Assembly (NCBI GenBank): GCA_964440465.1
Contig: CAYTSI010000005.1
Coordinates: forward strand, 151-64,150
Reading direction: 5' to 3'
From: an uncultured Spirochaetales bacterium
GTDB lineage: Bacteria > Spirochaetota > Spirochaetia > SPDA01 > CAZSGZ01
Length of the DNA stretch: 64,000 nt
A program made the translations under genes and the position numbers. Position 1 is the first letter of the stretch, and every line of letters begins with the position of its first letter. Below, piece by piece: positions 3,791 through 44,228 of the stretch. The notes under the pieces were generated by a model that was not told the origin of the DNA, did not search any database, and worked only from the letters and a program-made list of their open reading frames with translations.

Positions 3791-3793
3791 CAT

Positions 3794-5815: not shown

Positions 5816-5840
5816 GTTAAGGAAAATAGGAAGTGATGGA

Positions 5841-6113: not shown

Positions 6114-6388
6114 TGCTTGTGGCTAAAGTAATCGGAACGGTTGTCGCCACGCGGAAGCATCCCGTTTTACAGGGGTATAAGCTGTTAATTGTGCAGCCGA
6201 AGGGGCCTGACGGAACGGATGCCGGCGGGATCGAGATTGCCCTCGATACGGTACAGGCAGGGACCGGCGAAACGGTGCTGCTGTTGACGGAGGGCAACTC
6301 TTCGAGGATGATTATCGGCGACGACATGGCCCCGGTACGTGCGGTGGTGGTCGGCATTATCGATGAGGTACAGTACGATGCAGTATAA
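6113..6388 (+). CDS. BMC-P pentameric vertex protein paralog 4
   Basis: [29 protein letters not shown]...ALDTVQAGTGETVLLLTEGNSSR. Confidence 0.85.
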   Translation: MLVAKVIGTVVATRKHPVLQGYKLLIVQPKGPDGTDAGGIEIALDTVQAGTGETVLLLTEGNSSRMIIGDDMAPVRAVVVGIIDEVQYDAV

Positions 6389-6929: not shown

Positions 6930-6941
6930 GAGGATAGACAG

Positions 6942-7820: not shown

Positions 7821-7907
7821 AGACCGGACACCAGCCTCCCAAAAAGGTCCGGCGAAACGCGAAACGCTAATATTGACAACCAGTATTCAAATCGCTATCG
7901 TTATCAT

Positions 7908-8276
7908 ATGGGGACGTTTCATATCAGCTGTAAAGTAGAAAACCATATTGACCGCGGGAAAAATACTACAGTTAAAAACCTATTAGTAGACACCGGAAGC
8001 GGATTTACCTGGCTCCCCGCCTCGGAACTGGAGAACATCGATGTTGCCCGTGAGAAAAAAGATCTGCCTTTTATTATGGCAAACGGTCAAAGGATTACCA
8101 GGGACGCCGGCTTCGCGATCATCCGTGTAGAAGACCATTTCACCATTGATGAGGTTGTATTCGCGGAGGAAGGGGACTTGCTGCTGTTAGGCGCCCGCAC
8201 TTTAGAAGGACTGAACCTCCGGGTCGATTCGGTCCGGAAGAAACTCGTGGCCGCCGGACCGCTCCCGGCCGCGTAG
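7908..8276 (+). CDS. Retropepsin-like (clan AA) aspartic peptidase domain protein
   Basis: LLVDTGSGFTWLP contains the D-T/S-G catalytic motif in a ~120-aa single-domain protein typical of bacterial retropepsin-like proteases. Confidence 0.55.
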   Translation: MGTFHISCKVENHIDRGKNTTVKNLLVDTGSGFTWLPASELENIDVAREKKDLPFIMANGQRITRDAGFAIIRVEDHFTIDEVVFAEEGDLLLLGARTLEGLNLRVDSVRKKLVAAGPLPAA

Positions 8277-8286
8277 AATCTCCCTG

Positions 8287-8517
8287 TTGCCCCGCCGAGT
8301 CCTCTTTGGTATGATGGGACGGGAGATGGACAATACTCCAAAGAAAGCTCCGAACTGCCTGAAATGCCGTTTTTTTTCGGTTTCCTGGGACAGACGTTAC
8401 CCCCGGGCATGTTCCGTATTTGGTATTAAATCGAAGCAGCTTCCCAGCATGGAGGTATACCGGGCCACCGGGCGGCATTGTCCAATGTTTCAAAAATCCG
8501 AAAAAATAAAGGACTAA
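8287..8517 (+). CDS. Hypothetical small Cys-containing protein
   Basis: 76-aa ORF (CLKC...C...HCP); no recognisable family; start uncertain. Confidence 0.3.
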   Translation: MPRRVLFGMMGREMDNTPKKAPNCLKCRFFSVSWDRRYPRACSVFGIKSKQLPSMEVYRATGRHCPMFQKSEKIKD

Positions 8518-8533
8518 ACTGAAGGAATACATC

Positions 8534-9682
8534 ATGAATAGAGAACGAAAAAAAAGGCGGACACTAAAAAAGAGCGGGCCGATGATGTCCCGCCTGTACG
8601 GAGACACCGGCGTTAACGTTTCCGCGTTAGGTTTCGGCGGGATGCGGTTTGAGAAACCGGACGATATCGAGCATTCCGCCGAGACGGTGTTCCACGCCTT
8701 CGAGCGGGGGATTACCTATTTCGATACGGCGCCGGGGTATTTCGACGGTAAGTCGGAGGAGGCCGTCGGTACGGCGGTAAACGAGATGAAGAAAACCGGC
8801 AGGCCTTTTTATATATCCACGAAATCAAACAAGGCGGACGGTGCCGTGGTCCGGAAAGAGCTGGAAGAAAGCCTGAAGCGGCTGAATCTCGACTGTATCG
8901 ATTTTTATAACTGCTGGTACGTACTGACATTAGAGGATTGGGAAAAACGGAAAAACGGCGGGGCAGTGGAAGCAATTCTAAAGGCGCGGGACGAGGGGCT
9001 TGTCCGCTTTCCGGTATTTTCCACCCACCTTCCGGGAGACGCGGTACGTACGGTCATTGAAGAGGGATATTTCCGCGGCGTTACCCTCGGCTATTCGGCC
9101 ATCAATTTTCCCTACCGGGAAGAGGGGATACGGGCAGCCGGAGAGAACAATCTCGGTGTTGTCGTTATGAACCCCTTAGGGGGAGGAACAATTGTAAACA
9201 ATGCCGATGCCTTTCAATTTATCAAACGGGACAGCAAACAGACCGTTTTAGAGGCGGCCCTTCATTTTCTCTGGGCCCACGATGAAATTACGGTCGCGTT
9301 AGTAGGATGCAGGAACAAGTCCGATGTGGACGATGCCGCTGCCGCCGCGGCATCGTACGTACCCTATTCGGACGAAGATATCTCTAAAATAAAGAAGAAC
9401 ATTACCCGGGACTTCAACCAGCTGTGTACAAGCTGTACCTACTGTGATGTTTGTCCCGAAGACATCCCTGTCTGGAAGTTTGTGGAAACTGCAAACCATG
9501 TTATTTTAGGCTCTTCCGCGTCACTGTCCGGACGACTGAAATACTACTGGGGGGCTGATCCGACGGCCATGGAGCGGTGTATCCGGTGCGGGCAGTGTGA
9601 AAGTGCCTGCACCCAGCATATACCGATTATGGAACGGTTTGAGATGCTGAAAACAGCATTGACGGAGGAACCTACAAAGTAA
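8534..9682 (+). CDS. Aldo/keto reductase fused to C-terminal 2x[4Fe-4S] ferredoxin domain
   Basis: AKR N-terminal region (GFGGMRF..., DTAPGY) and C-terminal CTSCTYCDVCPEDIP / CIRCGQCESACTQHIP cluster motifs; GAAGGAA RBS before 8534. Confidence 0.75.
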   Translation: MNRERKKRRTLKKSGPMMSRLYGDTGVNVSALGFGGMRFEKPDDIEHSAETVFHAFERGITYFDTAPGYFDGKSEEAVGTAVNEMKKTGRPFYISTKSNKADGAVVRKELEESLKRLNLDCIDFYNCWYVLTLEDWEKRKNGGAVEAILKARDEGLVRFPVFSTHLPGDAVRTVIEEGYFRGVTLGYSAINFPYREEGIRAAGENNLGVVVMNPLGGGTIVNNADAFQFIKRDSKQTVLEAALHFLWAHDEITVALVGCRNKSDVDDAAAAAASYVPYSDEDISKIKKNITRDFNQLCTSCTYCDVCPEDIPVWKFVETANHVILGSSASLSGRLKYYWGADPTAMERCIRCGQCESACTQHIPIMERFEMLKTALTEEPTK

Positions 9683-9795: not shown

Positions 9796-10953
9796 TTGTA
9801 TCAAAATAGAGGTATGGAAGAAAGAAAAGTATTAATAAAAGATTTCGAGAAAAAAATCCAATCCAATGAGGAAAAAATCAGGCTGCTGCTGATACAAACG
9901 GGTGAATACCTCTTTGCAAAGGCGAAAAAAGATACCCGGTCCGCGGCGCAGGATGATTATGATGCCGCGAAACGGCAGCTGGATTCCCTGGAACAATACA
10001 AGGACAGCAAAAAACGGATTCTTGCCATTCTCGAACGGCTTTCTGAGATTAAAGAAGAGATGACCAATTCCGGCGGGCAGATTGAGATCATAGAACGGGC
10101 GAATCTGCCGGTATATGAAGTCATAGGAGAAAAGGCCTACGAACACCTGCGTCATGATCCGTCCCGGTATAATCAGTACAGCGATGTATTTGTGGATGTC
10201 AATAATCAGATAGAGGACATTGAAAATATAGAAAATGACATTGAAGCAATACACGCGCAGAAAAAGCAGCGTAAATTCTTTGAAAAAATTGCGGACACCG
10301 GTCAGGTAACCTATTTAAAGGGGATCAAGATGGTCCGGGCAAAAACAATGCCCCGGCTGTACCGGGAGGCCGGGCAAAAGCTCACGGAAACCAATTTTTT
10401 GGAAACAACAGGAAACGAAGAAATCGTAAGCGCCGCCGGACCGTACCTGCAGAACAAAGAAAAATTGAAGGAACTGCATACCCGGATGGAGCATCTCTCG
10501 GAAGAGGAAAAGAGTTTAGAGTCGGAACTGATCAATTTAGGAGTGGACAAACGGGCAGACCGGCGAACGGACGAACTCGACCGGAATATTGCCGCTGCCC
10601 AGGAGAAATACACGGAAAAGCTTCTCGCGATTGCCCGGAAGGTGCGGGAAAACACCCCGGAGGCAATTGCCTCACTGTCGGACTATAAAGAATTTCTCAA
10701 AGAAATCGCGAAATGCGAAAAGCAGAATGATCAATACCGGGAAAATATTACAAAACTCAACGCGGCAATTGAGGCGGATAATTGTGCCCGCCAGCTTGAA
10801 AGAATGAATGAAAGTATCGGCGACCGCGAGCGGCGTATTCGGGAGTACGAACAGGAAATAGAAGACCTGCAAAAACGGATAGCGGAAACGGAGAAAGAGA
10901 AAAAGCGCTACGAGGAAATCAGGGGTCCTAAGGAACTGACACTTCAGTCGTAA
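9796..10953 (+). CDS. Coiled-coil protein of unknown function (alt. start ATG 9814)
   Basis: E/K/Q-rich heptad-like sequence throughout; no catalytic motifs recognised. Confidence 0.45.
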   Translation: MYQNRGMEERKVLIKDFEKKIQSNEEKIRLLLIQTGEYLFAKAKKDTRSAAQDDYDAAKRQLDSLEQYKDSKKRILAILERLSEIKEEMTNSGGQIEIIERANLPVYEVIGEKAYEHLRHDPSRYNQYSDVFVDVNNQIEDIENIENDIEAIHAQKKQRKFFEKIADTGQVTYLKGIKMVRAKTMPRLYREAGQKLTETNFLETTGNEEIVSAAGPYLQNKEKLKELHTRMEHLSEEEKSLESELINLGVDKRADRRTDELDRNIAAAQEKYTEKLLAIARKVRENTPEAIASLSDYKEFLKEIAKCEKQNDQYRENITKLNAAIEADNCARQLERMNESIGDRERRIREYEQEIEDLQKRIAETEKEKKRYEEIRGPKELTLQS

Positions 10954-10990
10954 TGTCTGCCCGCGGCATCCCATAACAACCTTCCACTGA

Positions 10991-11030
10991 CAGCCCGTTC
11001 GGATAACTCCGGCCGGGCTGCTCTTTTTTG
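10991..11030 (+). terminator. Rho-independent terminator after coiled-coil gene
   Basis: cagcccg...cgggctg stem followed by ctcttttttg. Confidence 0.5.
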
Positions 11031-11046
11031 TAAGCTGTGATAGGAT

Positions 11047-12174
11047 ATGTTCCGTATGAACCGGTTTACGATGTGCGCGGCAGCCGACTTTCACCTCGGC
11101 ATGAGGTTCTCTTCCTACCCTTCTGTGCAAAAGGAGCTGATACGGGCGAGGTTTTCCGCGCTCCGGCGGGTGGTGGACCGGGCAAATGCCGAACAATGCG
11201 CTCTTCTTGTGATAGCGGGAGATTTGTTTGATCGTATCAACATCCCGGTAAAAGAAGCGGAGGAAGTGATAGAAATTCTCGGCGGATTTCAGGGTGATTG
11301 CATTGCGGTTTTACCGGGTAACCACGATTATTTCAGCGGTGCAAAGAGCGGTGTCTGGAAAACCGTTACGGAGAATGGACCGGATAACCTCCTGCTGCTG
11401 TCGGAGAAGAAAAAATACTACCTCAATGATTTCCATTTGCCGGTTGTTTTATATGCCGGCCCATGCAGTTCTCAGCACGGACGTGAAAACGCGGTATCGT
11501 GGATCGGCCCGGCGGACCGAAAGGACAGAGAATTGTTTCATATAGGGGTAGCCCACGGCAGCATTGAGGGGATTTCCCCCGACGTAACCAAGCAGTATTT
11601 CCCGATGAACAGGAAGCAGCTGGAGTCCGCCGGTCTCGATTTGTGGATTATCGGGCACACCCATATACCCTTCCCGGAGCGGGAGGAAACGGTATCGCCT
11701 TTTATTATACCCGGCACACCCGAACCGGACGGTTTTGATTCCGGCGGGGACGGAGCTGCTTGGATTATTTCGGTAAATGATAACAAGGCGGTACACAAGA
11801 AGCGGTTTACTGCCGGCTCATACCGTTTTACGCGGCAGATAAAGGAAATACACTCCGCCGGGGACATTGAGGAGGCGGTCCGTGAAATGAGCGGAACGGC
11901 CGGTCCTTCCGTTCTCCTGCAGCTGAAACTGCGGGGCACTCTTGTGAAGGGCGATTTTCCCCTTTTAGGTCCGGCAATGGAAGAATTGGCACAGCGGTTT
12001 TTTTATACGGATATTGATACGGAAAGCGTGAAAACAAAGCTGACCCCCGGAGAAATCGGCAATGAATTCCGGGAAGGGACCTTTCCCTATATTCTTCTTT
12101 CCCGTCTCTCCGAGTACGGCGATACCGAGGCGCTCGAGCGGGCTTACAGGATCCTAGAGGAGATGAGGAAATGA
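11047..12174 (+). CDS. sbcD: SbcD/Mre11-like calcineurin-family metallophosphoesterase (DNA repair exonuclease, YhaO-like)
   Basis: Phosphoesterase motifs AAADFHLG, VIAGDLFD, LPGNHD, GHTH; overlaps downstream ATPase gene by 4 bp. Confidence 0.7.
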   Translation: MFRMNRFTMCAAADFHLGMRFSSYPSVQKELIRARFSALRRVVDRANAEQCALLVIAGDLFDRINIPVKEAEEVIEILGGFQGDCIAVLPGNHDYFSGAKSGVWKTVTENGPDNLLLLSEKKKYYLNDFHLPVVLYAGPCSSQHGRENAVSWIGPADRKDRELFHIGVAHGSIEGISPDVTKQYFPMNRKQLESAGLDLWIIGHTHIPFPEREETVSPFIIPGTPEPDGFDSGGDGAAWIISVNDNKAVHKKRFTAGSYRFTRQIKEIHSAGDIEEAVREMSGTAGPSVLLQLKLRGTLVKGDFPLLGPAMEELAQRFFYTDIDTESVKTKLTPGEIGNEFREGTFPYILLSRLSEYGDTEALERAYRILEEMRK

Positions 12175-14651
12175 TCATCCGGGACCTGCACATTCATACC
12201 TTCGGGGACTTTCAGGATGTCCGGCTGCAGTTTGCAGACGGGTGTAATATTGTCCTTGGTGAAAATGAAGCGGGTAAGTCAACGGTTTTCAATGTAATCG
12301 ATCATCTGCTGTTTACTCCCGTCAAGCTGACGAAGCGTGAAATGGAAAAAAGCTTGAATCGATGGTTTCCCGTTGGAGGCGGGGATACGTTGAGCGCGGA
12401 ATTATCTGCCGAACTCGGGGACAGAGCTGTTCGGTACTTCAAGTGCTGGGGCGGGAATCCGGAAGGAACAATTCGATTTTCACCGGGAGGGACCTATTCG
12501 GGCGATGATGCCCTCGCTGCGGAAACGGAAAAATTGTGGGGATACTCTCCGGAGACGGTGCGGCAGGTTTGCCTGCTGCGGCAGAGTACCCTCGCGGATA
12601 CGCTGCCTTCCTACCAGAATTCGAAGGAGGTATTGCAGTCTCTTACCGACATCCTGCAAAATTCTTTAATAGAAGGCGGCGGTATTTCCACCTCCGGTTT
12701 TATTGAAACTCTCCGGGACCGGTACAGCTTGTTTTTTTCAAGATGGGACAGAGACCGGAACTATCCGGAAAAAAACAGAGGGATTGAAAATCCATGGTCG
12801 GTAAACGTGGGTACGGTTTTGAAATGGTGGTATGAAATGAAGCGGGCCGAGTTAGAGGTCCGGCGGGTAGAGCAGCTGGAAGACTCAATATGTTTACTGC
12901 AGAGCAGCCAAAAAGAAAAAAAGAAGGAAACGGCAGCTCTCGAGTCGTTTCTTTCTGCCTTTGAGACAGTCTACAACACTGCCGGAGACAGAAAAAGCCT
13001 GGAATTGGAACTGCGGGAAATTATCGGTACGATGGAGCGGATAAAGAAAGACAGTCAATCCTGGGGACGGGGGAGGGATGGTCTTGAACAGGCGCTCCGG
13101 GAGCGGAAAGAAGGGAACGAAGAACTTGGAAAGCTCCGCGGGCGGATCGAAAGCAGGGATGAAGTAACGGCGAAACGGAAACGGTTCGAAAAATATCGTC
13201 GGCTGCTGGAGGTGAAAACAAAACTCGACGCCCTGGAGGCAAAGCTCAGAGAACAGCCGGCAATACCGGAAAAGGATTTGCAGGCACTCCGTGAATCAAG
13301 GTTGGCAATTCGGGAAAGTGAGGTGAAACTGCAGTCCGGAACACTCTTTGCACAGCTGACCGCGAAGAAAAATATCAGTTTTTCCTATACTCCCGGATTG
13401 GGCACTGAAAAGCGGCGTGACCTTATGGCAGGGAATTCGCTTGAAATAACGGCGGAAGGGAAAATTCGGCTGAGCCACGAAGACTGGGAGCTGGATGTTT
13501 ATTCGGGAAACGAAGATTACGAAACCGTCAAAAAGGAGCTGGAGGCAGGCAAAAAAGAGTTTAACGCTCTCTGTGAGAAGTACGGTGTTGTTTCCGTCGA
13601 GGAAGGAGAAGCACAGCGGAAGGTTTATACTGATCTGGAAGGGGAAACGGCACGGGCGCGGAAACAATTTTCCGAGGAACGCGGAGAGGACTCTTTTGAA
13701 GCCCTGAAGAAGGAAGTCGAAAGTTTTGGGGCCCTTCCTGAGGAAACCGACAGTACCGAGCTGGGAAGAGAATACGGTTCTCTCAATGAACGGCTTGCCG
13801 CGCTTGAAAAAACAATACAGGAACATCGGGAACGGTTGTCGTATTTGGAAGAGACATATGGGACGGAGGAAAAGCTTCTGGACATGCTCGCGGACCTCCG
13901 CGGCCGGCAGCGGGACTTGGAGAAACAAGTGGCTGCTCTTCCGGAAATTCCTGACCCCTTCGAAACGGCGGAAGAATTTCTTGAGGCATACAGGGAAAAA
14001 CAAAGAAAAAGGGAGACGCTCCGTCAGGAAATATTTGAGTTAGATAAGGCGGCCGCCCTTGCGGTAAAAGACCTCCCGGACATCTCCCTCGAGGAGCTCG
14101 AAGCGGACGCTGAAGCCGCGCGGCGGCGTTTTCAATCCGCGCTTTCGGAGGGGGAGACAATCGGCCGGATTCTCGAGACAGCGCTGCGGATCCAAAAAGA
14201 AATTCAGGAGAACCCCTATACCGCCTTTATGGAGGCGGCGGAAGCAAACCTTAAAAAAATGACCGGGCAGAGGCTGCAGTATAAAAGCAGATCAGGCGGG
14301 GGGGACGGTCAGGCAGCGGCCCCTTTTCACGGTGATGTTAGAAACAGCCGGGGAGAAATTCTGGCGTACGGACAGCTTTCAGGCGGAACGAAAGACGCGG
14401 TTTCTCTAGCCGTCCGGCTGGCAATGGCGGAGTATTATCTGAAAAATAAAGCAGGGTTTCTCCTCTTTGATGATCCCCTAGTGGAAATGGACCCGCGGCG
14501 CCAGAAGGCCGCCGCCGAACTGCTTTCCGAAACCGCCCGGCGCTACCAGTCGATAATCTTTACCTGTCATCCCCACATGCGCGATTTATTCCCGAATGCC
14601 AATGTAATTGAGCTGCATCGGGACGGGGAACGGAGGCGTGTTAAATTTTAA
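12171..14651 (+). CDS. sbcC: SbcC/Rad50-like ABC ATPase with long coiled coil (YhaN-like)
   Basis: Walker A GENEAGKST near N-terminus, ~600 aa coiled-coil, C-terminal LSGGTKDAVSLA signature and LLFDDPLVEMD Walker B/D-loop. Confidence 0.75.
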   Translation: MIIRDLHIHTFGDFQDVRLQFADGCNIVLGENEAGKSTVFNVIDHLLFTPVKLTKREMEKSLNRWFPVGGGDTLSAELSAELGDRAVRYFKCWGGNPEGTIRFSPGGTYSGDDALAAETEKLWGYSPETVRQVCLLRQSTLADTLPSYQNSKEVLQSLTDILQNSLIEGGGISTSGFIETLRDRYSLFFSRWDRDRNYPEKNRGIENPWSVNVGTVLKWWYEMKRAELEVRRVEQLEDSICLLQSSQKEKKKETAALESFLSAFETVYNTAGDRKSLELELREIIGTMERIKKDSQSWGRGRDGLEQALRERKEGNEELGKLRGRIESRDEVTAKRKRFEKYRRLLEVKTKLDALEAKLREQPAIPEKDLQALRESRLAIRESEVKLQSGTLFAQLTAKKNISFSYTPGLGTEKRRDLMAGNSLEITAEGKIRLSHEDWELDVYSGNEDYETVKKELEAGKKEFNALCEKYGVVSVEEGEAQRKVYTDLEGETARARKQFSEERGEDSFEALKKEVESFGALPEETDSTELGREYGSLNERLAALEKTIQEHRERLSYLEETYGTEEKLLDMLADLRGRQRDLEKQVAALPEIPDPFETAEEFLEAYREKQRKRETLRQEIFELDKAAALAVKDLPDISLEELEADAEAARRRFQSALSEGETIGRILETALRIQKEIQENPYTAFMEAAEANLKKMTGQRLQYKSRSGGGDGQAAAPFHGDVRNSRGEILAYGQLSGGTKDAVSLAVRLAMAEYYLKNKAGFLLFDDPLVEMDPRRQKAAAELLSETARRYQSIIFTCHPHMRDLFPNANVIELHRDGERRRVKF

Positions 14652-23192: not shown

Positions 23193-23561
23193 ATGCCGTT
23201 TAGTATTTTGGAAAAAGACAGGAAGACATTTGAATATTTTAAAAAATACGTTGAGTTTTTAGAGCTCGAGGAAAACACCTGTCTCATCCTTGACAACAAG
23301 ATACAATCCGAGGAAATCCAGGAGCATTTGCGCCGGACCGGTCATAACAGCGGAATGGATGGAAGGAAAAAAGAGATTATTTCACAGTGGATTAAAGAAA
23401 ATGCCCGTCCGTTCCGGGATTATCTGAACAGCATCAAACTTGCCTATGTCGTATGGAAATGCATGGGCAAAGAATGGTCCGAGATAACCTGGGAAGAGTT
23501 CTTCAAAATCGAAGAGCGCCTCAATTCCCTCAAGTACAAATGTCTCGATACGATTTTTTAA
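23193..23561 (+). CDS. Hypothetical protein
   Basis: 122-aa ORF, no recognisable motifs. Confidence 0.3.
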   Translation: MPFSILEKDRKTFEYFKKYVEFLELEENTCLILDNKIQSEEIQEHLRRTGHNSGMDGRKKEIISQWIKENARPFRDYLNSIKLAYVVWKCMGKEWSEITWEEFFKIEERLNSLKYKCLDTIF

Positions 23562-25399
23562 GAAAACATCATGCTGTTCACGTAATCGTCCATAAACTCC
23601 GGCGAAGATGACAATTCAATATATTCGGTCTGTTCACTCAGTGCCCCGCATTCCTGTAATTTTTCCCGGGACAGCAGCGCCATAATCGCGCCGGAGCCGG
23701 CTGCATTGCCGATAACTTCAATCTTGTTTTCCAGTTCTTTGGGAATAAGGCCGATATGTATTGCGTGATGTTTATCGATATAGCTGCCGAATCCGCCCGC
23801 GAGGAACACCCGTTCGATATCATGAACGCTCTTACCGGCGGTTTTCATGAGGGTGGTTATTCCCGCTGCAATTGAAGCTTTCGCGTTTTGCACCTCCCGT
23901 ATGTCCTTCTGGGTAAGAAGAATTGCATCGCCGTGGGACGTATCTTCAGCCTTTACCAAGGTGTAGGCGGTCTGTTTGTCGAGTTTGGTCAGGTTTTCCG
24001 CTAAATGCTTTCCGGTTTCGTTTTCTATATCATCGGCATCAACCATCCTGCCGGTTTCATCGATAATACCGGCATAGAGCAGGTTGGAAATGGCATCCAC
24101 AATTCCGGAACCGCAAATGCCTAAAGGTTTTTTATCGGCAATGGTAGTACAGGATATCGATGAATCGTGAAGGGCGACCGTATCGATTGCTCCGGCTATT
24201 CCTCCGACTCCGTCCCTGATGGTGGCGCCTTCAAATGCCGGTCCGGCCGCGGTGGAACAGGAAAGCAGCCGGTCCTTGTTTCCGAGCATAATTTCACCGT
24301 TTGTTCCGATGTCGATGAGGAGGCTCAAGCTTTCTTCTTTTGCCATTCCGCTGGCCAATGTAGCGGCGGTAATGTCCGCGCCGATATAGGCTGAAATCCC
24401 GGGCAGCAGATAGATCCACCCCTGTTCGGCAATGGCAATCCCCATTTCAGCCGCGGTTGTCCGCGTCATTTCCAGACTGGCGGGGATAAAGGGCGCCGCG
24501 GCGATATTTTTCGGAGGTATTCCCGCCGCGAGGTGCATCATGGTGGAGTTCCCCACGATGGTCATGCTGTAGATGCTCTTCCGGTCAATTGCATATTTGG
24601 AGACAAGCGAATCGATGAGGTCATTCAGCTGCCCGATAATGCCGTTGTGCAGTGTTTCCAAGCCCTGTTCATTCGTCATGGTGTGATTTATCCGGGCAAT
24701 AACGTCCTGTCCGTAACTTTTCTGCACGTTCAGGCCGGAGGCCACGCCGATTTTTTTCCCGGAAGTCATGTCTAAAAGATAGACGACCACGGTTGTTGTC
24801 CCGATATCCACCGCCAGGCCGTAATTGATATCTTCGGTGTTCCCCTGCTCGATGGTCAGAATCTGCGCGTCGTTGTAGACCGCGGTAGCGGAAAAACCGT
24901 TGTCCCGAAGCACCGAGGGCAGTTTTCCGATCTCATTCAGCGTAATCCTGTGGTCCGGCAGTTTGAGTTCGTCCCGAAGCCTTTTCAGGTCGTCCCGCTG
25001 GTCTTCTAAGGTCGGCTTGGAAAGGGAAACATATTTCTTTTTAATGCATGGGTTTAGATGTTCCCGAAACTCGCTGCTGTCCTCTAATATAACGATCTGT
25101 CCGGACTTGTCGTTTAAGGTAACGGTAATGTCTCCGGTTATCTGAGTAGAACAGGCAAGTCTGTATCCCCGGGCGAGTTCGGTTTCCGACAGTTTTTTCT
25201 TTTCAATTTCGGTAACGCCGGAAGCTCCGTCCCCCTCTACACGGACAAGGCATTTGCCGCAGGTCCCCCTCCCCCCGCAGGGTGTTTCGATAAACGACCT
25301 GTATTTTTCACCCACCGCTTCTAAAATCGTAGTTTCTTTTTTGCATGATACCGTTTCTGTTTCGTTTTCGGTAATAATGGTAACGTTGTATTCTGACAT
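23558..25399 (-). CDS. RACo-type ATP-dependent reductive activator of corrinoid proteins (2Fe-2S ferredoxin domain + ASKHA ATPase/DUF4445)
   Basis: N-terminal plant-type ferredoxin Cys pattern (PCGGRGTCGKC...C) followed by ~500-aa ASKHA-like domain (DIGTTTVVVYL). Confidence 0.7.
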   Translation of the reverse strand: MSEYNVTIITENETETVSCKKETTILEAVGEKYRSFIETPCGGRGTCGKCLVRVEGDGASGVTEIEKKKLSETELARGYRLACSTQITGDITVTLNDKSGQIVILEDSSEFREHLNPCIKKKYVSLSKPTLEDQRDDLKRLRDELKLPDHRITLNEIGKLPSVLRDNGFSATAVYNDAQILTIEQGNTEDINYGLAVDIGTTTVVVYLLDMTSGKKIGVASGLNVQKSYGQDVIARINHTMTNEQGLETLHNGIIGQLNDLIDSLVSKYAIDRKSIYSMTIVGNSTMMHLAAGIPPKNIAAAPFIPASLEMTRTTAAEMGIAIAEQGWIYLLPGISAYIGADITAATLASGMAKEESLSLLIDIGTNGEIMLGNKDRLLSCSTAAGPAFEGATIRDGVGGIAGAIDTVALHDSSISCTTIADKKPLGICGSGIVDAISNLLYAGIIDETGRMVDADDIENETGKHLAENLTKLDKQTAYTLVKAEDTSHGDAILLTQKDIREVQNAKASIAAGITTLMKTAGKSVHDIERVFLAGGFGSYIDKHHAIHIGLIPKELENKIEVIGNAAGSGAIMALLSREKLQECGALSEQTEYIELSSSPEFMDDYVNSMMFS

Positions 25400-25444
25400 A
25401 GGACATCCTTTCTTACATATAGAATTTTTAATATATTGATTAAT

Positions 25445-25720
25445 TTACATCGATTTTATCAATTGTTCAAGTCTGTTTTCGGTAATAATTGAACCGGCAC
25501 TGACCTGTTTTCCCCGAACAAGAAGGGCGGGAAACTGATGAATTTCAACACCGGGTACCGTGCATTCTTCATCCGCCCGGAGTTTTACATGATTTATTTG
25601 TATATCGGGATGTTTGGTCTGTATCTCACGCAATACTTCACGAACAATTTGATCGCTAATTGTGCAGGAAGCGCAATGCTGGTCTTTTGAAACAAGGGTA
25701 ATGGTAACAGGTTCAGCCAT
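25445..25720 (-). CDS. Small thioredoxin-fold redox protein (CxxC)
   Basis: 91 aa, HCASC motif and FPALLVRGKQVSAG resembling small redox-active disulfide proteins. Confidence 0.45.
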   Translation of the reverse strand: MAEPVTITLVSKDQHCASCTISDQIVREVLREIQTKHPDIQINHVKLRADEECTVPGVEIHQFPALLVRGKQVSAGSIITENRLEQLIKSM

Positions 25721-26651
25721 TTCCTTCTATTGTACACGCTTTAATGCTTTGCGCAAGAGATTCTTCGCTGATGCTGCCGCGGATAAGGACGATTTTGCTG
25801 CTGTTTGCTTCGAGAAGCGCGGGAACAGGGGGTTTTTCGGAATAGACGCCGTCAATAATTTCAAAGTACTTCGGACCTTCGGGAAAGCGGAGGACCCCTT
25901 TGCCACGGAGTATTTCCGGTTGTATTTTTTTAATATACGCCTCCCATTTCCCCCGGTCGAGGAGGGCTTTCAGTTCAATACTGAAAGAGAAAAAATTATC
26001 CGGCGGTGTATCGCTGCATTTTTCGGGGACATCCTTCTGCCGCGGCGCGATTTCTTCCAGTGCGTCCCGGGAAACTTCCCCGAAACGGGCGGGAAAGATG
26101 GGGGCGGATTCATTATGTTCCCGCAGAAGCTTTTCCGTTTCTTCCAACCGCTCCGGCGTTACCGTGTCGACTTTATTCAGAATAAAGGCGTCGGCGTATT
26201 CTGCCTGGATCTGTACCGCCTCTAAGGTGGCCTCGACTTTATGAAAATTCGCCGCGTCGATAACACAGAAATTCTGTTCCAGTGATATCAGCTTATCGAG
26301 CCCGTCGAGGCGCATCATGGCATACATATCATCCACCCGGGCGATCCCGGTTGCTTCGATAAGGAGAAAATCGGGCCGCGTCTTCTCCGCTATGTTTTTC
26401 AGCTCCGCGATAAAATCGGTGCGCATGCATACGCAGAAAATGCTGCCCTTGTTGAGTTCGATTTTGTAAAAATCGCCCTCCCGTACCAGGGCGCCGTCAA
26501 TCCCGATGGACCCGAACTCATTAATCATCACCGCGAGTTTTCCGCCCCGGGTACTGTACCATTCGATAAGCCGGTTAATAAGTGTCGTTTTCCCGGCGCC
26601 TAAGAACCCCGTAACCAGGACGGTTTTAATTAGAGGATAGCTTTGATCCAT
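25713..26651 (-). CDS. CobW/COG0523-family metallochaperone GTPase
   Basis: VTGFLGAGKTTL P-loop, CVC metal-binding motif, ~310 aa. Confidence 0.75.
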   Translation of the reverse strand: MDQSYPLIKTVLVTGFLGAGKTTLINRLIEWYSTRGGKLAVMINEFGSIGIDGALVREGDFYKIELNKGSIFCVCMRTDFIAELKNIAEKTRPDFLLIEATGIARVDDMYAMMRLDGLDKLISLEQNFCVIDAANFHKVEATLEAVQIQAEYADAFILNKVDTVTPERLEETEKLLREHNESAPIFPARFGEVSRDALEEIAPRQKDVPEKCSDTPPDNFFSFSIELKALLDRGKWEAYIKKIQPEILRGKGVLRFPEGPKYFEIIDGVYSEKPPVPALLEANSSKIVLIRGSISEESLAQSIKACTIEGNG

Positions 26652-28249
26652 TCCTTAATAACCTCTTTGTCGATTACCTTTCCGAAAGATTTGAGTTCTT
26701 TTTTAACGGAAATGACCGCCGGCAGTTTTTTTACCTTTAAATCGCGGATTTCGTCGGTATCATTAACCCGTTCGATGGTAATATTGCTTCCCAGTTCCCG
26801 CTGGGCCCTGTTGATGTTGTCGAGCAGCTCCATCGATTCGTCGGAACCGTCGTCTATAACGATCAGTTTCGAGTCGGCCCGCTTAATCCGCGCCCGTTCA
26901 ATCATCCTCTTGTAGACGGCATGGACTAAGTCTTCCCGTTTCGGGATTTGGCTGATAAAAGCAACCTGCCCGTCGATACAGATGGTGGGCACTTTTTCCA
27001 CATGCAGAGCCTCCATCAGTTCGATGGATTCCTTTGTTTTAATTTTATGTTCCCGCCATTCGACCACCCCTTCGAACTCCGGCGCGATTTCCTGCACGCT
27101 TTCCACCATGTACTGACAGGGGGCGCAGGATTCGGAGTCAAGGGTTATGATATCAACCTTGATTTTATCCAGGCCGCCGTAATCGGACATGTCCAGGTCG
27201 GAATGTTCGGCCACCTCTGTCCCCACTAACTCCATGGCAACCTGAAGCTTGTAATCGTCCTTCAGCATTTCCGAAACGGCGATAATGTTTTCCTTCGGTA
27301 CGCCGAAGGGAATATCGCATCCCGGGGCGAGGATAAATCCCGTTTTTCCGCCGGTCTGCAGGCATTCCGCCGCGTGCCGGAGGTTGTCCTTTTCATCCCC
27401 GAAGAGCATGATCGTTGTCAGGCGCATATTGCCGCCGAAGGAAACGTTGTATTTTTCAGCGGTCTCCCGAACGTAATCGAGGGGAATGTTTTCATCAATT
27501 GATACATTGTCGGGCCTGCATTTACACATGGCCTCGACATTTTTCTGGGCGTGGCCGCATACAAAAAAGGATGAGTAGGTGTTTTCCTCCCGAATATGGG
27601 AAAAAATGTCGGAGCAGTATTTTGAGACGTAGGTCCCGAAATCTTTCGGGCTTATCTGGCTTGTCATAGGATCGACAACCGCAATCACATCGCAGCCGTT
27701 TTTTATGTAGTAGGAAGCCATTTTTTTCCCAATTTCCGTACCGAATCGCATTACCTCATGGACTTTCTCCGGATTATCGTACATTTCCATAAAGATTTCC
27801 GGCCCTAACAGGTGCAGTGACAATGTAAAGGGCCCTGTTATCAGGCCGTACAGGGCCACTTCGGGGTATTTCTCCCGGATCTTCCGGGTAACTTCCATAA
27901 TCATCGGAATACGACCCTTGGTTTCATTCAATTCCGGAAGGTCCTCCAGTTTTTTTCCGCCTGTAAGGGCGTGGCTGGATACCGCCGGCGGATTGTCCCG
28001 GGCCCAGATCAGGTCGCAGCCTAAAATTTCCGCTTCCACCTGCAGGTCGAAAATGACCGGGATCCCGTCGGGCCGGTAGGTGTCAACTGCCGCGGAAATG
28101 CCCGCGATCATATTGTCTTTGCTTTTTAAAAACTCCTCGGCCCCCATTCCCAGAAGGGCCGCCGCGTGCACCCCCACAAAGGGGACATAGGGTACACGGA
28201 GGGTCTCTTTATTTTGAATAGCTGTTACTACGAGTTCTTTACCTGTCAA
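26630..28249 (-). CDS. URO-D-family (MtaA/MtbA-like) methylcobamide:thiol methyltransferase fused to C-terminal thioredoxin-like domains
   Basis: N-terminal ~340 aa uroporphyrinogen-decarboxylase-like fold as in corrinoid:CoM/THF methyltransferases; C-terminal CAPC ... VPTICIDG thioredoxin-fold motifs. Confidence 0.6.
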   Translation of the reverse strand: MTGKELVVTAIQNKETLRVPYVPFVGVHAAALLGMGAEEFLKSKDNMIAGISAAVDTYRPDGIPVIFDLQVEAEILGCDLIWARDNPPAVSSHALTGGKKLEDLPELNETKGRIPMIMEVTRKIREKYPEVALYGLITGPFTLSLHLLGPEIFMEMYDNPEKVHEVMRFGTEIGKKMASYYIKNGCDVIAVVDPMTSQISPKDFGTYVSKYCSDIFSHIREENTYSSFFVCGHAQKNVEAMCKCRPDNVSIDENIPLDYVRETAEKYNVSFGGNMRLTTIMLFGDEKDNLRHAAECLQTGGKTGFILAPGCDIPFGVPKENIIAVSEMLKDDYKLQVAMELVGTEVAEHSDLDMSDYGGLDKIKVDIITLDSESCAPCQYMVESVQEIAPEFEGVVEWREHKIKTKESIELMEALHVEKVPTICIDGQVAFISQIPKREDLVHAVYKRMIERARIKRADSKLIVIDDGSDESMELLDNINRAQRELGSNITIERVNDTDEIRDLKVKKLPAVISVKKELKSFGKVIDKEVIKEWIKAIL

Positions 28250-28388
28250 TATATTCTCCTTACATATGAATATACAAAAATTGCCGCTCTGGAGAAAGGA
28301 TGATCTTTCTAATTTTTGTAATTCCTCTTCCTCCGTCCCCTCATTTATGGTATTTTAGCTGTGGACCCGCAAAATAGAAGGAGAAGAT

Positions 28389-29285
28389 ATGGCACGAACG
28401 ACAATAACAGAGGCAATAGCGGCGCGGAAAGTACTCGTTTCCGACGGCGCGTGGGGAACAATGATGCAGATGGGGGGGCTCTCGCCGGGTGAATGCCCGG
28501 AGGCCTGGAACACGGAAAAGGCCGATACGGTATTCGAAATCGGCAAGGCGTATATCGATGCCGGGTCCGATATTATCGAGACAAACAGCTTCGGCGGAAC
28601 ATCATATAAATTGAAGTACTACGGTCTTGAAGACCGGGTCGAAATACTGAATAAACTGGCCGCGGAATTGTCCCGGAAGGCCGCCGGCGAGGACAGATGG
28701 GTAATGGGGTCCATGGGACCGACAGGGAAGCTAACGGTAATGGGGGACATAACGGAAGAGGAATATTTCACCGCCTTCACCGAGCAGGCAAAGGCCCTCG
28801 AGGCTGGCGGCGCGGACGCGCTGATGATAGAAACCCAAATGGCCCTTGATGAGGCGTTGGCAGCGGTCCGGGCCGGGAAAGAACATACCTCTCTCGAGAT
28901 TATCGCCTCGTTTACTTTTGAAGAAACCGAAAAAGGCGGTTTTAAAACGATGATGGGTGTAAGCCCCGCGCGGGCGGTTACGGCTGCCGTGGACGCCGGG
29001 GCCTCGATTATCGGCGCGAACTGCGGCAGAGGCTATGCAGGAATGGAACGGGTAATACGGGAGTTCAAGGAGGCCCGCCCGGATGTACCTGTCCTTATTC
29101 AGACAAATGCCGGAATTCCGAAGCAGGAGGACGGGGTAGATGTGTTCCCCGCGACACCGGAGGAGATGGCGGGACAGGTGCCGCTATGGATTGAAGCCGG
29201 GGCCTCGATTATCGGCGGCTGCTGCGGAACGACGGAACAGCATATTGCCGCGATCCGGAAAGCCGTCGATGAATATCTACGCTGA
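28389..29285 (+). CDS. Stand-alone homocysteine S-methyltransferase domain (MetH Hcy-binding-domain-like, Zn-dependent)
   Basis: LVSDGAWGTMMQ (cf. LDGAMGT), GANCG, C-terminal GGCCGTT zinc-site motif. Confidence 0.75.
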   Translation: MARTTITEAIAARKVLVSDGAWGTMMQMGGLSPGECPEAWNTEKADTVFEIGKAYIDAGSDIIETNSFGGTSYKLKYYGLEDRVEILNKLAAELSRKAAGEDRWVMGSMGPTGKLTVMGDITEEEYFTAFTEQAKALEAGGADALMIETQMALDEALAAVRAGKEHTSLEIIASFTFEETEKGGFKTMMGVSPARAVTAAVDAGASIIGANCGRGYAGMERVIREFKEARPDVPVLIQTNAGIPKQEDGVDVFPATPEEMAGQVPLWIEAGASIIGGCCGTTEQHIAAIRKAVDEYLR

Positions 29286-29299
29286 CAAAAGGACGGAAC

Positions 29300-30349
29300 A
29301 TGGACCGAAAACTGAAGCTCTCGATTAGGAAAACTGAAAATGAAAAACTCCGGGGGGAAATTCAAACCCGCCTCGACGACTTGACGAAGCCCCCGGGAAG
29401 CCTGGGACGGTTGGAAGAACTGGTTATGCAGTACTGTCTCTGCAGAGGTAATGCCGATGCCGTACTTGAAAAAATGAAGATTTTTACCTTTGCCGGGGAC
29501 CACGGGATTACCGAAGAAGGCGTCAGCCCCTATCCCTCGGAGGTTACCATGCAGATGGTGATGAACATGGCCGCCGGCGGGGCCGCTATCAGTGTGCTCT
29601 GTAAGAACGCGGGAATCGAATATTCCGTTGTGGATATCGGCGTTGCCGGGGACCTTCCGAAGATTGACGGCATTATCTATCAAAAAATTGCACGGGGGAC
29701 GGAGAATTTTGCCAAAGGGCCGGCAATGACGGAGGAGCAGTGCTTCAATGCCCTGCAGGCGGGCATTGATCTCGCCGGCGCGGGACCCCGCGACCTGTAT
29801 GGCGTCGGGGAGATGGGGATTGGCAACACTTCATCCGCTTCCGCCCTCTGTGCCCTTTTGCTGGGAATACCGGCCGAGGAAACAGTCGGTGCCGGGACCG
29901 GAGCGTCGGGAGATCTTCTGGCGCGAAAAAAAGAAGTCATACGGGCGGCGGTTCATTTTCACCGAAAGTCCTGGGACGGAAGCGGGTTTGACGCCCTGCG
30001 CCGTGTCGGGGGGTATGAACTTGCCGGAATGGCCGGTGTCATGCTGGGTGCCGCCGCGAAAAGGGTCCCGACCGTGGTCGACGGCTTTATCTCCTCCGCG
30101 GCGGCGCTGGCGGCGCTTCGTATCTGTCCCGAAACGGAGGATTATCTTATCTTTTCTCACGCATCGGCGGAACATTATCACCGGGCTTTTTTAGAAAAAC
30201 TTTCCGTCAAGCCGGTAATGGACCTGCGGATGCGTTTAGGTGAGGGGACCGGTTCCGCCCTGGCAATGCAGATTATTCAGCAGGGAATGAACTGCTATCA
30301 CCAGATGGCCACCTTCAGTTCCGCCGGGGTTTCGGGGACGGAGGAATAG
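29300..30349 (+). CDS. cobT: Nicotinate-nucleotide--dimethylbenzimidazole phosphoribosyltransferase
   Basis: [15 protein letters not shown] and [14 protein letters not shown] signature motifs. Confidence 0.85.
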
Positions 30350-30356
30350 CCGCGGC

Positions 30357-31271
30357 ATGCCGATTAAAATACCCGACAATTTACCCGCCCACCTTGTCTT
30401 GTCCCGGGAAAACATCTTCGTTATGGACGAGACCCGGGCAATCCATCAGGATATCAGGCCGTTAAAAATCCTTTTACTCAATTTGATGCCGACAAAAATT
30501 ACGACGGAAACCCAGGTGATGCGTCAGCTTTCCAACTCGCCCCTGCAGATCGAGGTTGAGCTGCTGCATCCGAAAACGCATATACCGAAAAACACCCCTT
30601 CCGAGCATCTGCTGGCTTTTTATAAAACCTTTGACGATGTGAAACATCAAAAATACGACGGCCTTATTATTACCGGCGCGCCTGTTGAGCGTATCGAATT
30701 TGAAGAGGTCACCTACTGGGAAGAGCTTACCCGCATTATGGAATGGTCGATACATCATGTAACGTCGACAATGCACGTCTGCTGGGCCGCCCAGGCGGGG
30801 CTGTACTATCATTACGGGATAAAAAAGCACGATCTTTCGAAAAAAATGTTCGGTGTCTTCCCGCATTCCACCCTGAACAGATCGATACCCCTAGTCCGCG
30901 GCTTCGATGACGTGTTTGTCGCCCCCCATTCGAGGCATACGGAGGTCCGGCGGGAAGAAATCGCGGCCCATCCGGAGCTCGAACTTTTAAGTGAATCCCA
31001 GGAGGCGGGAGTATACATCGTTTTGGCGAAAAACGGCATGATTTTCGTAACCGGTCATGCCGAATACGATCCCCTTACCCTGAAGGAGGAGTACGAACGG
31101 GACCGGCAGAAGGGGGAGTACATCGAATTACCGAAAAACTACTTTATCAATGATGATCCGGGACTAGGCGTTATCGTCCGCTGGCGAAGCCACGCCCAGC
31201 TCCTCTTTTCGAACTGGCTTAATTACTACGTCTACCAGCTTACCCCCTATGATATGAACCAGATCCGGTAG
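30357..31271 (+). CDS. metA: Homoserine O-acyltransferase (MetA family)
   Basis: [16 protein letters not shown] and [15 protein letters not shown] motifs. Confidence 0.85.
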
Positions 31272-43691: not shown

Positions 43692-44228
43692 CTAGGAGAC
43701 GCCGGCTTCCGCAAGTGAAAACACCTGCTCCATGGTTTCGGTGTTATTCGCCCGAAACACCTCGTGATCCTGGACGTCGAAAAAGATCACCGTTGGAGAG
43801 GCAAGTACCTGATGCTCTATCGCCGAATCCATTCCTTCGGGGGTATCAACATCGACGGAACTGCCGGGCATGGAAAGCTTGTTTACATATTCTTTAACCG
43901 GAGGACAATTCGGGCATGTGCCGCGGTAAAAAAACGTATAGGAAGCGGCCGATTCCGCGATGTCCCGGGGAGGGGACCCGCCGGTGCCCATCTCTTTTCC
44001 CGCGAATTCCGGCTGCCTCGAGCCGTGTTTTATCATGTTTTTCGGTTCCGAAAACAGCTTTCGGTAGTCGTATTCCTCCCGCTTCCCCTTGTTCCAATTT
44101 GCCACGGAACGGTAATATCCGACAATCCGCGTATATACTTCGGTTTTCGTACCGGTCACGCCCCGCAGATGCTGTTGTAATTCGGCTATTTCTTTGTCCA
44201 CCTGTTCAACTGTTCGTGTCGCGTTCAT
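43692..44228 (-). CDS. Stand-alone glycyl-radical domain (NrdD C-terminal-like) fused to CxxC redoxin domain
   Basis: N-terminal TEVYTRIVGYYRSVANWNKGKREE matches NrdD glycyl-radical motif (RVCGYLG...N.GK..E); C-terminal YTFFYRGTCPNCPPV...SPTVIFFD thioredoxin/glutaredoxin fold. ATG overlaps nrdD stop (ATGA). Confidence 0.6.
   Translation of the reverse strand: MNATRTVEQVDKEIAELQQHLRGVTGTKTEVYTRIVGYYRSVANWNKGKREEYDYRKLFSEPKNMIKHGSRQPEFAGKEMGTGGSPPRDIAESAASYTFFYRGTCPNCPPVKEYVNKLSMPGSSVDVDTPEGMDSAIEHQVLASPTVIFFDVQDHEVFRANNTETMEQVFSLAEAGVS

Follow-up and report, generated by a model that had tools for sequence, protein, structure and literature searches.

How might a bacterium make methionine when the parts of its cobalamin-dependent methionine synthase are encoded by separate genes, and which enzyme would load the methyl group if no folate-binding part is found among them? 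This question is raised by a locus in a 64,000-nucleotide stretch of DNA from an uncultured Spirochaetales bacterium (contig CAYTSI010000005.1, positions 151 to 64,150, forward strand; the whole stretch is referred to here as the window). In this locus, the genes for a RACo-type corrinoid activase, a small CxxC protein, a G3E GTPase, and an MtaA-like methyltransferase fused to thioredoxin domains are divergent from the genes for a homocysteine methyltransferase, cobT, and metA. We use FUS for the fusion of a URO-D (MtaA-like) domain with two thioredoxin (Trx) domains, Hcy module for the stand-alone homocysteine-binding methyltransferase, CP for corrinoid protein, and Act for the MetH-type activation domain. 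Our data suggest that FUS and the GTPase probably belong to a corrinoid methyl-transfer system linked to a split methionine synthase. The further reading, that the window holds most of a rearranged, multicomponent (split) cobalamin-dependent methionine synthase with FUS as its donor-side enzyme, is one for which we see the case as evenly balanced. The novelty lies in two points: every cluster lacks the pterin module, and the recurrent extra is an uncharacterized, widespread MtaA-like-thioredoxin fusion with a private GTPase. The features of the locus are as follows.

23558-25399 (-), RACo-type activase, 613 aa; Pfam Fer2, RACo_linker, Raco_middle, and RACo_C_ter
25445-25720 (-), small CxxC (CASC) protein, 91 aa; weak Thioredoxin_3 match
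25713-26651 (-), divergent COG0523-like G3E GTPase, 312 aa; Pfam cobW and CobW_C
26630-28249 (-), FUS, 539 aa; Pfam URO-D (192.9 bits) and Thioredoxin_3 (53.5 bits, in two stretches)
27227-28249 (-), URO-D/MtaA-like TIM-barrel domain of FUS, aa 1-341; Pfam URO-D (192.9 bits)
26882-27163 (-), thioredoxin-like domain 1 of FUS, aa 363-456; redox type by alignment, profile match, and modeled topology
26636-26872 (-), thioredoxin-like domain 2 of FUS, aa 460-538; Thioredoxin_3 (53.5 bits), no cysteine
28250-28388 (no strand), divergent intergenic spacer of 139 bp between the FUS operon and the Hcy-module operon
28389-29285 (+), Hcy module, 298 aa; Pfam S-methyl_trans (234 bits)
29300-30349 (+), cobT; DBI_PRT (418.7 bits) and TIGR03160 (416.5 bits, above the cut-off of 319)
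30357-31271 (+), metA, homoserine O-acetyltransferase type; HTS (459.9 bits) and NF047918 MetA_acetyl (490.5 bits, above the cut-off of 460.5)

The four genes of the minus-strand block (RACo, small CxxC protein, GTPase, and FUS) overlap by 22 and 8 bp or are separated by a single 45-bp gap, and therefore they likely form one operon. On the plus strand, with gaps of 14 bp (Hcy module to cobT) and 7 bp (cobT to metA), the three genes are in the same operon, divergent from that of FUS. An earlier note on this DNA, made from the letters alone, had placed all of these genes correctly, and its domain calls were upheld by the list of open reading frames (ORFs), Pfam, and NCBIfam. Its statement that no B12-binding corrinoid protein is present also held: neither tblastn with 8 corrinoid proteins and a full MetH nor a scan for the DxHxxG motif revealed one in the 64-kb window. 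A pterin-binding domain was likewise not found in the window.

The FUS protein and its GTPase partner

What kind of enzyme is FUS? The AlphaFold2 (AF2) model of the whole protein, based on a 30-sequence alignment and with a predicted local distance difference test (pLDDT) score of 85.9, contains a TIM barrel (aa 1-341) followed by two units (aa 363-456 and 460-538). The best match of the barrel in the Protein Data Bank (PDB) was 4AY7, the coenzyme M (CoM) methyltransferase MtaA of Methanosarcina mazei, both by sequence (E 6e-33) and by fold (Foldseek target TM-score [TMt] 0.90, root mean square deviation 2.1 Å); the next-nearest folds were those of uroporphyrinogen decarboxylases. FUS scored below the cut-off of each related NCBIfam model, namely TIGR01463 for MtaA/CmuA (139.7 versus 235.4), PRK06252 (158.8 versus 244), MtaA_Meth (126 versus 400), and MtbA (117 versus 600). 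Judged by its sequence, FUS would work like an enzyme of the MtaA family, yet it falls outside every characterized subfamily.

The putative metal site sets it apart in particular. At the position of the zinc-ligand histidine in the H-x-C motif of MtaA, FUS has Phe229, and both cysteine ligand positions are retained. C231 and C311 were each present in 73 of 73 full-length FUS family members, and H233 was present in 92%. The phenylalanine is found throughout the near clade, one-Trx forms and stand-alone forms of at least 35% identity among them, and H-x-C-G is retained in MtaA-like proteins at a greater distance. Zinc dependence, which had been assigned to both methyltransferases of the locus as thiol methylases, is unproven for FUS, given the phenylalanine at the histidine position and a GTPase without CxCC that scores far below the ZigA and CobW cut-offs. 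One FUS relative, P0375 (455 aa; URO-D plus one Trx domain), has lost C231, C311, and the CxxC all together, with TTG in place of VCG and GRD in place of GCD in the barrel. This joint loss, a single case, suggests that the four cysteines may act as one unit with a coupled function.

The two C-terminal units were modeled as thioredoxin-like, each with beta-alpha-beta-alpha-beta-beta-alpha topology, in agreement with the original call. When the C-terminal 194 aa were modeled separately (pLDDT 84.4), the nearest PDB folds in Foldseek were the a-b pair of protein disulfide isomerase (PDI), Trx1-Trx2 of QSOX1, the P. furiosus protein disulfide oxidoreductase (PDO) 1A8L, and thioredoxins. Only the first domain has a CxxC (C375-A-P-C378, with the cis-proline P421, all invariant); the form C-[AP]-P-C was found in 73 of 73 family members. 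Its match by hidden Markov model (HMM) was the MJ0307 thioredoxin 1FO5, and it matched NCBIfam HUIPC_Trx_selen at 42.9 bits, below the cut-off. The second domain has the fold and no cysteine; its HMM match was MTH895 1ILO (E 3.6e-7). A CxxC in this domain was seen in 3 of the 73 members, and the FUS of the window is not one of them. In the model, the second domain resembles the b domain of a PDI a-b pair. The tandem of a catalytic CxxC domain and a cysteine-less Trx-like domain is thus shared with PDI-like pairs and with PDO 1A8L; unlike those proteins, FUS has much smaller domains of the MTH895/MJ0307 type, which are cytoplasmic and fused to a methyltransferase. Membership in selenoprotein families (HUIPC Trx, 42.9 bits; CobW-related selenoprotein, 69.5 bits) was rejected because both scores fall far short of the cut-offs and an in-frame UGA is absent. 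With the di-Trx region as the sole query, only fragments of the FUS family were recovered, with no other fusion partners.

How widespread is this architecture? FUS homologues number in the thousands. The best 120 are 539 to 560 aa long, except for one fragment of 473 aa, and are at least 50% identical to the FUS of the window; the 30-odd among them with a named source come from Spirochaetota, Bacteroidota, KSB1, Victivallales, Planctomycetota, and Raymondbacteria. For the analysis of gene context, we used 80 FUS-anchored genome loci from more than 10 phyla (L001 to L080) and 14 further loci (L081 to L094). One of them, L001, is 96% identical to the locus studied here and comes from a metagenome-assembled genome of an uncultured Spirochaetales. 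The redoxin fusion had been described as atypical; on the contrary, URO-D-Trx-Trx is the hallmark of a large, conserved family of about 539 aa in more than 10 bacterial phyla. No publication on a fusion of URO-D with thioredoxin, or on the pairing of such a fusion with COG0523, came up in full-text literature searches.

The GTPase of the window matches Pfam cobW (132.8 bits) and CobW_C (28.4 bits), and its gene is the one that overlaps the FUS gene by 22 bp. It is like the COG0523 metallochaperones (CobW, ZigA/YeiR/ZNG1, and Nha3) in its G3E core, its CobW_C domain, and the linkage of its gene to that of a presumed metalloenzyme client. Its scores are far below the equivalog cut-offs for ZigA (94 versus 600) and CobW (86 versus 332). 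A conserved GCxCC (CxCC) metal-binding motif has been stated for all COG0523 members (PMC2770081). In contrast, the FUS-linked GTPases have an invariant S-x-F-C-x-C at this place and no His-rich stretch: among 55 sequences, GSxFCxC, with two cysteines only, replaces GCxCC without exception, and the Walker A motif (GxxGxGKTT), EATG, and NKxD are invariant as well.

A homologue of the GTPase gene lies immediately downstream of FUS in 68 of the 80 loci, and 4 of the other 12 loci end there. The groups with this synteny include Spirochaetota, the Planctomycetota-Verrucomicrobiota-Chlamydiota (PVC) group, KSB1, Calditrichota, Sumerlaeota, and Chitinivibrionales. None of the 11 Hcy-module loci without FUS has the GTPase gene, and therefore the GTPase goes with FUS rather than with the Hcy module or the corrinoid protein. 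These data go against the idea that a zinc chaperone serves both methylases of the locus.

Gene neighborhoods in related genomes

Does FUS keep company with other parts of a corrinoid-dependent system? The usual arrangement is a bare two-gene FUS-GTPase operon. When the GTPase is left aside, FUS has 112 operon partners on its strand, and the Pfam families seen most often among them were B12-binding (6), URO-D paralogues (6), and RACo (3). One or more of CP, RACo, activation domain, Hcy module, and MetH were found by tblastn and Pfam in 15 of the 80 loci; the chance of one unlinked gene falling within 8 kb of FUS is about 0.4%. A small corrinoid protein is encoded in 8 of them (L005, L008, L012, L045, L047, L053, L072, and L078) and RACo in 5 (L001 to L003, L005, and L076). 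A stand-alone MetH activation domain (PF02965) was found in L009 and L072, and tblastn found homologues of the L072 protein in L091 and L093. An orthologous Hcy module is present in L001 to L003, L058, L072, and L078, and a full MetH is present in L051; counted together, these two kinds of partner adjoin FUS in four phyla or more.

The four fuller clusters each run along a single strand. In L093, a metagenome locus, one strand carries RACo, an insertion sequence (IS), URO-D-Trx, GTPase, CP, activation domain, and Hcy module; the URO-D protein of this locus has one Trx domain and the motifs FVCGD, APGCD, and CAAC. L085, found by searching with the di-Trx region, reads CP, FUS (frameshifted), a toxin/antitoxin insertion, Hcy module, and GTPase. 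L072 reads FUS, GTPase, CP, URO-D, Hcy module, and Act, and L005 reads FUS, GTPase, CP, and RACo. In L093 and L085, FUS is the sole methyltransferase besides the Hcy module. The reciprocal search of metagenome contigs from the Hcy module gave 9 loci, 4 of them with a CP orthologue directly upstream and 2 of these 4 with an activation domain between CP and Hcy module. The corrinoid proteins beside FUS and those beside the Hcy module form one orthologous group, with 52 to 65% identity across phyla.

No pterin-binding methyltransferase (PF00809) was detected in the window, in L081 to L094, or in the FUS/corrinoid clusters. Matches to such proteins in L001 to L080 were confined to the full MetH of L051 and to weak matches (28 to 30% identity) in L007 and L039, which we take to be FolP-like.

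Is the Hcy module itself a part of a methionine synthase? It has the zinc triad C212, C278, and C279 (GANC(212)G and GGC(278)C(279)G), with the cysteines kept in at least 97% of 119 homologues. Its best NCBIfam matches were PRK07534 (betaine-homocysteine methyltransferase [BHMT] type, 251 bits), the YitJ N terminus (239), MetH (173), and MmuM (92). Orthologues lie directly behind a dedicated corrinoid protein in L085, L088, L091, L093, and L094, and a MetH-type activation domain accompanies the module in L072, L091, and L093. Sequence and gene context support the assignment of the module as MetH N-terminal or MtgE-like, that is, as the putative homocysteine part of a split B12-dependent methionine synthase. 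By gene context, its link to methionine synthesis is the operon that it shares with metA. MetA carries out the first committed step of methionine synthesis, and CobT is the nicotinate-nucleotide:dimethylbenzimidazole phosphoribosyltransferase that activates the lower ligand of cobamides. On the cobT/metA side, synteny of cobT is kept in L001 to L003 only.

The activase has all four RACo Pfam domains in the correct order (E 1e-79), namely the [2Fe-2S] ferredoxin, linker, middle, and ASKHA domains. It reached 465 bits against NCBIfam AcsV, for which the cut-off is 800, and no client is assigned by this match. RACo homologues adjoin FUS in L093 as well as in the five loci given above. The recurrence of RACo in these six loci, together with the Hcy-module orthologues accompanied by CP and Act, supports the earlier reading of the locus as a corrinoid-reactivation, methionine-synthase-like neighborhood.

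The small protein encoded between RACo and the GTPase had been called a CxxC protein of the thioredoxin fold. The CxxC (CASC) is there, and the thioredoxin call is weak: the window protein matches Thioredoxin_3 at 22.4 bits, under the cut-off of 24.8, and the L001 orthologue matches at 26.0 bits. We consider it probably thioredoxin-like on the basis of these matches. BLAST revealed no similarity between this protein and the Trx domains of FUS, and among the 80 loci it is limited to L001 to L003, a spirochete clade. In L002, as in the window, the small CxxC protein (10528-10842) and RACo (10883-12727) are encoded by separate genes. In L003, both lie in one uninterrupted reading frame of 724 aa (10528-12702), which may represent a Trx-RACo fusion.

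Several further observations were made in these neighborhoods. The IS of L093 (rve integrase, 3165-4211) is inserted between RACo and URO-D-Trx, and the insertion of L085 (7694-8412) between FUS and Hcy module is an NTP_transf_2/HEPN pair. Of the cases that looked like split URO-D and di-Trx genes, that of L085 was rejected as a frameshift within a normal fusion; the break in L084 lies in the linker and may be a real split. In some KSB1 and PVC loci, a glycoside hydrolase family 2 (GH2) glycosidase, a major facilitator superfamily (MFS) transporter, sulfatases, and regulators of the GntR and periplasmic-binding-protein types lie beside clusters of FUS, CP, and URO-D paralogues (L047 11899-13775, L053 6688-7968, L012 4604-6184, and L076 6450-7841). 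This context hints that the extra URO-D paralogues there could demethylate methylated sugars. An association of FUS with sulfatases (7 loci) was set aside as consistent with the high sulfatase background of PVC genomes. In L033, a full ars operon (ArsR, ArsP_1 permease, DUF6951, ArsC of the low-molecular-weight protein tyrosine phosphatase type, and Acr3) follows FUS-GTPase on the same strand (5245-8897), and ArsP_1-type permeases also adjoin FUS in L049, L054, and L079. The ArsP_1 protein of L054 has an HMA domain (Pfam), and the copy in L049 is 91% identical to it over the full length. We regard this link of FUS to arsenic as a weak hint.

Other features of the window

Are the two divergent operons under common control? 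In the 139-bp spacer, Rfam had no match at the gathering threshold, nor in a permissive scan (E<=1) of positions 28200 to 28420, and 13 related loci with long upstream regions had no Rfam match upstream either. On these grounds, control of the two operons by a riboswitch or leader was rejected. Promoter and terminator scans of the spacer remained at background level. Adjoining the locus on the other side, a 122-aa ORF without Pfam or NCBIfam match (23193-23561, plus strand) reaches 4 bp into the RACo stop region and, downstream of a dGTPase-like HD gene, is conserved at 72 to 98% identity in L001 to L003.

A second methyltransferase gene had been put forward as the source of methyl groups for the locus.

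60230-61654 (-), MttB-family methyltransferase, non-Pyl; MTTB profile (467 bits, single stretch)

The profile was matched in one uninterrupted stretch, and the gene is therefore of the non-Pyl type to which it had been assigned. It lies 31 kb from the FUS locus, flanked by TetR, CBS/ACT, and EamA genes, and no corrinoid protein or second methyltransferase (MT2) is encoded next to it in the window. MttB homologues are absent from the 80 FUS loci and from L081 to L094; with the link conserved in none of the related loci, a functional connection of MttB with the FUS locus was rejected, and the proposal that the system is fed by methylated amines is not supported.

Elsewhere in the window, a full-length cobalamin riboswitch (RF00174, 52892-53065, minus strand, 50.7 bits) lacks a plausible downstream gene in its own orientation. 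It reads into the 3' end of the gene for a 1926-aa alpha-2-macroglobulin (47040-52820, plus strand), which is convergent with it, and the nearest minus-strand genes beyond it, nrdR-nrdD-nrdG, are 5.9 kb away. The riboswitch may control an antisense or noncoding RNA, or it may be a relic. The anaerobic ribonucleotide reductase NrdD (43692-46351, minus strand) looks split: a 708-aa ORF (44225-46351) spans profile positions 1 to 538 of 562, and a second ORF of 178 aa (43692-44228), which overlaps the first by 4 bp, begins with the final ~30 positions of the profile. The separate end presumably includes the glycyl-radical region.

Proposed routes of methyl transfer

How would these parts work together? 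In the split synthase that we propose, a corrinoid protein encoded elsewhere in the genome would shuttle the methyl groups. FUS would stand in for the folate module of MetH and methylate the Co(I) corrinoid protein, and the Hcy module would make methionine by moving the methyl of CH3-Co(III) onto homocysteine activated by zinc. RACo would bring Co(II) back to Co(I) with the help of ATP and its [2Fe-2S] cluster. The invariant CxPC of Trx domain 1 may keep C231 and C311, or a thiol substrate or product, in the reduced state, and the GTPase may insert or reinsert a metal at the noncanonical site of FUS. We infer these last two roles from the strict fusion, from the synteny, and from the reported clustering of COG0523 subfamily 13 genes with mtaABC and ramM in Methanosarcina (PMC2770081). 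The reaction of the Hcy module runs to methionine and FUS is the only other methyltransferase in L093 and L085; therefore, FUS is most simply placed on the donor side.

Which donor would FUS use? The cysteine-rich site argues for sulfur chemistry, and conservation of a housekeeping kind points to a central donor, for example methyltetrahydrofolate (CH3-THF). Both kinds of donor have precedents among MtaA homologues: CmtA/MtsF prefers methyl-tetrahydromethanopterin, MtsA carries out both half-reactions with methyl-thioethers, and MtpA is a donor-side methyltransferase (MT1) specific for methylmercaptopropionate (MMPA) (10.1101/548461).

Several findings weigh against a donor-side role of FUS in a split synthase. 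With neither a corrinoid protein nor an activation domain in the 64-kb window, the system is incomplete here, and about 80% of the FUS loci consist of the two-gene module alone, with no corrinoid genes nearby. The extra URO-D paralogues in L008, L012, L047, L072, and L078 could be the donor-side enzymes, and FUS would then be on the acceptor side (MT2). In L051, FUS lies beside a complete MetH with its own folate module. The cysteine-rich site of FUS, moreover, suggests sulfur chemistry and not pterin binding.

What else could FUS do? One alternative, which we rate as rather unlikely, is that FUS is an acceptor-side thiol methylase of the MtaA type that acts in parallel to the Hcy module and unloads methyl groups onto a small thiol or sulfide as a sink, with donor-specific enzymes (URO-D paralogues, perhaps MttB) loading the corrinoid proteins and the Trx domain supplying the thiol acceptor or keeping it reduced. 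The closest characterized relatives of FUS are CoM methylases (4AY7 MtaA; NCBIfam MtaA/MtbA), and the two cysteine ligands typical of S-methyltransferases are retained. In addition, L047, L012, and L008 combine CP, FUS, GTPase, and divergent URO-D paralogues without an Hcy module or a pterin MT2, so that FUS sits at the expected place of MT2, and GH2, MFS, and sulfatase genes are near those clusters. However, L093 and L085 offer nothing but FUS for the donor side, no candidate pathway for an acceptor thiol was seen in any locus, and the MT2 homologues MtsA and MtpA act as MT1, so that the direction does not follow from family membership (10.1101/548461). A synthase fed by methylamines through MttB, with the COG0523 protein as zinc chaperone of both methylases, seems improbable to us. 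MttB, RACo, and the MtgE-like Hcy module do occur within the same 64 kb, and the MttB-type MtgB of Ruegeria shares its corrinoid protein with a split MetH (PMC12478193). Yet the MttB gene is a distant orphan without counterparts in the 94 related loci, and the GTPase co-occurs with FUS only, lacks CxCC, and fails the ZigA and CobW cut-offs. What stands of the earlier interpretation is the split, RACo-serviced, methionine-synthase-like system; the methylamine feed, the shared zinc chaperone, and the atypical fusion are not supported.

Could FUS and the GTPase be unrelated to methionine synthesis, with a function such as methylation of thiols or of the metalloids arsenic and selenium, or detoxification, and adjoin the Hcy module by coincidence? 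Most FUS loci do lack anything corrinoid-related, ArsP_1 permeases lie beside FUS in four loci and an ars operon in one of them, there are the weak selenoprotein matches, and Mlp homologues have been implicated in methyl-selenide metabolism (PMC10418091). Against this, four or more phyla have an Hcy module or MetH next to FUS, and the recurrence of CPs, Act, and RACo is far above chance; of the four arsenic-linked loci, two are near-identical, and the selenoprotein scores are far below their cut-offs. We hold this explanation to be very unlikely. Least probable in our view is that FUS and the GTPase would form a device for cobalamin processing or loading, similar to CblC/MMACHC with a MeaB-like G3E protein, which dealkylates or reduces cobamides with thiols and hands them over to CPs or MetH. 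The MtaA-type reaction is chemically a thiol-dependent dealkylation of methylcobalamin, which invites comparison with CblC. The module also adjoins CPs, activases, a full MetH (L051), and, in the window, cobT, and the B12 chaperone MeaB is itself a G3E GTPase (PMC2770081). However, the CP(-Act)-Hcy module loci L088, L091, and L094 have neither FUS nor the GTPase in cis, and there is no sequence relation to CblC or MeaB (MeaB profile, 23.8 bits).

How does the split synthase that we propose compare with known systems? Genetic work has revealed a split cobalamin-dependent MetH with a RamA-like activase in Phaeobacter and Desulfovibrio (Price et al. 2018, PMC5764234). The MetH of Phaeobacter inhibens consists of three parts (PMC5764234), and Ruegeria pomeroyi has MtgC, MtgD, and MtgE (Mausz et al. 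2025, PMC12478193). The likeness lies in the Hcy module, a stand-alone PF02574 protein whose best NCBIfam match is the BHMT type of S. meliloti, to which MtgE is homologous; in the separate corrinoid protein of the loci related to the window; and in reactivation by a ferredoxin-ASKHA (RamA/RACo) protein that replaces the MetH activation domain or adds to it. Unlike those systems, the window and the related clusters lack the pterin module (MtgD), their recurrent extras are the MtaA-like-Trx fusion and the G3E GTPase, and no DUF1638 protein was seen. The hosts differ as well: anaerobic Spirochaetota, PVC, KSB1, and similar bacteria here, and aerobic Alphaproteobacteria there.

With the CoM methyltransferases MtaA, MtbA, MtsA, and MtpA, FUS shares the TIM barrel, two of three zinc-ligand positions (C231 and C311), and, by gene context, the company of corrinoid proteins and RamA-type activases. 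It differs from them in scoring below all cut-offs, in the phenylalanine for the histidine of H-x-C, in the C-terminal Trx domains, in the strict coupling to a GTPase, and in its hosts, bacteria from which CoM is not known. The type 1 mlp clusters (Kountz & Balskus preprint, PMC10418091) likewise combine a bacterial MtaA-like URO-D protein with a CP and a RACE/RamA protein and no folate methyltransferase, and they are proposed to carry out methyl chemistry on S or Se (PMC10418091). Unlike FUS, however, Mlps have a canonical His-Cys-Cys site. The presence of Mlp2 plus Mlp3 defines a type 1 cluster, most such clusters come from Firmicutes, and the mlp paper mentions neither a fusion to Trx nor COG0523 genes nor an Hcy module (PMC10418091). 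Membership of the window in this type was rejected, as it has one URO-D gene and no corrinoid protein and the histidine ligand is absent.

What would this mean for the bacteria that carry FUS? As far as we searched the literature, FUS is the first corrinoid methyltransferase found hard-wired to a thioredoxin, and the FUS-GTPase couple may offer a clean client-chaperone pair for a COG0523-like GTPase with a noncanonical metal motif. Taken together, FUS, GTPase, CP, Act and/or RACo, and Hcy module could constitute a previously unrecognized, widespread type of cobalamin-dependent methionine synthase, a proposal that we offer tentatively and think somewhat likelier to fail than to hold. In such an enzyme, the folate domain of MetH would be replaced by a nonhomologous MtaA-family barrel with a Cys2 metal site serviced by a fused thioredoxin and a private metallochaperone, and the methyl group would come from CH3-THF or from environmental methyl-sulfur compounds. 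It would be found in PVC, KSB1, Spirochaetota, Calditrichota, Bacteroidota, and others. Annotation pipelines search for methionine synthase, a core enzyme, in the form of the MetH, MetE, and Mes families. Should a modular synthase be at work in many anaerobic heterotrophs instead, their dependence on methionine and B12 and their one-carbon fluxes are mispredicted. The hosts are abundant in sediments, guts, and digesters, and if the donor is a methyl-thioether, the turnover of methanethiol and dimethyl sulfide would be tied directly to bacterial methionine synthesis.

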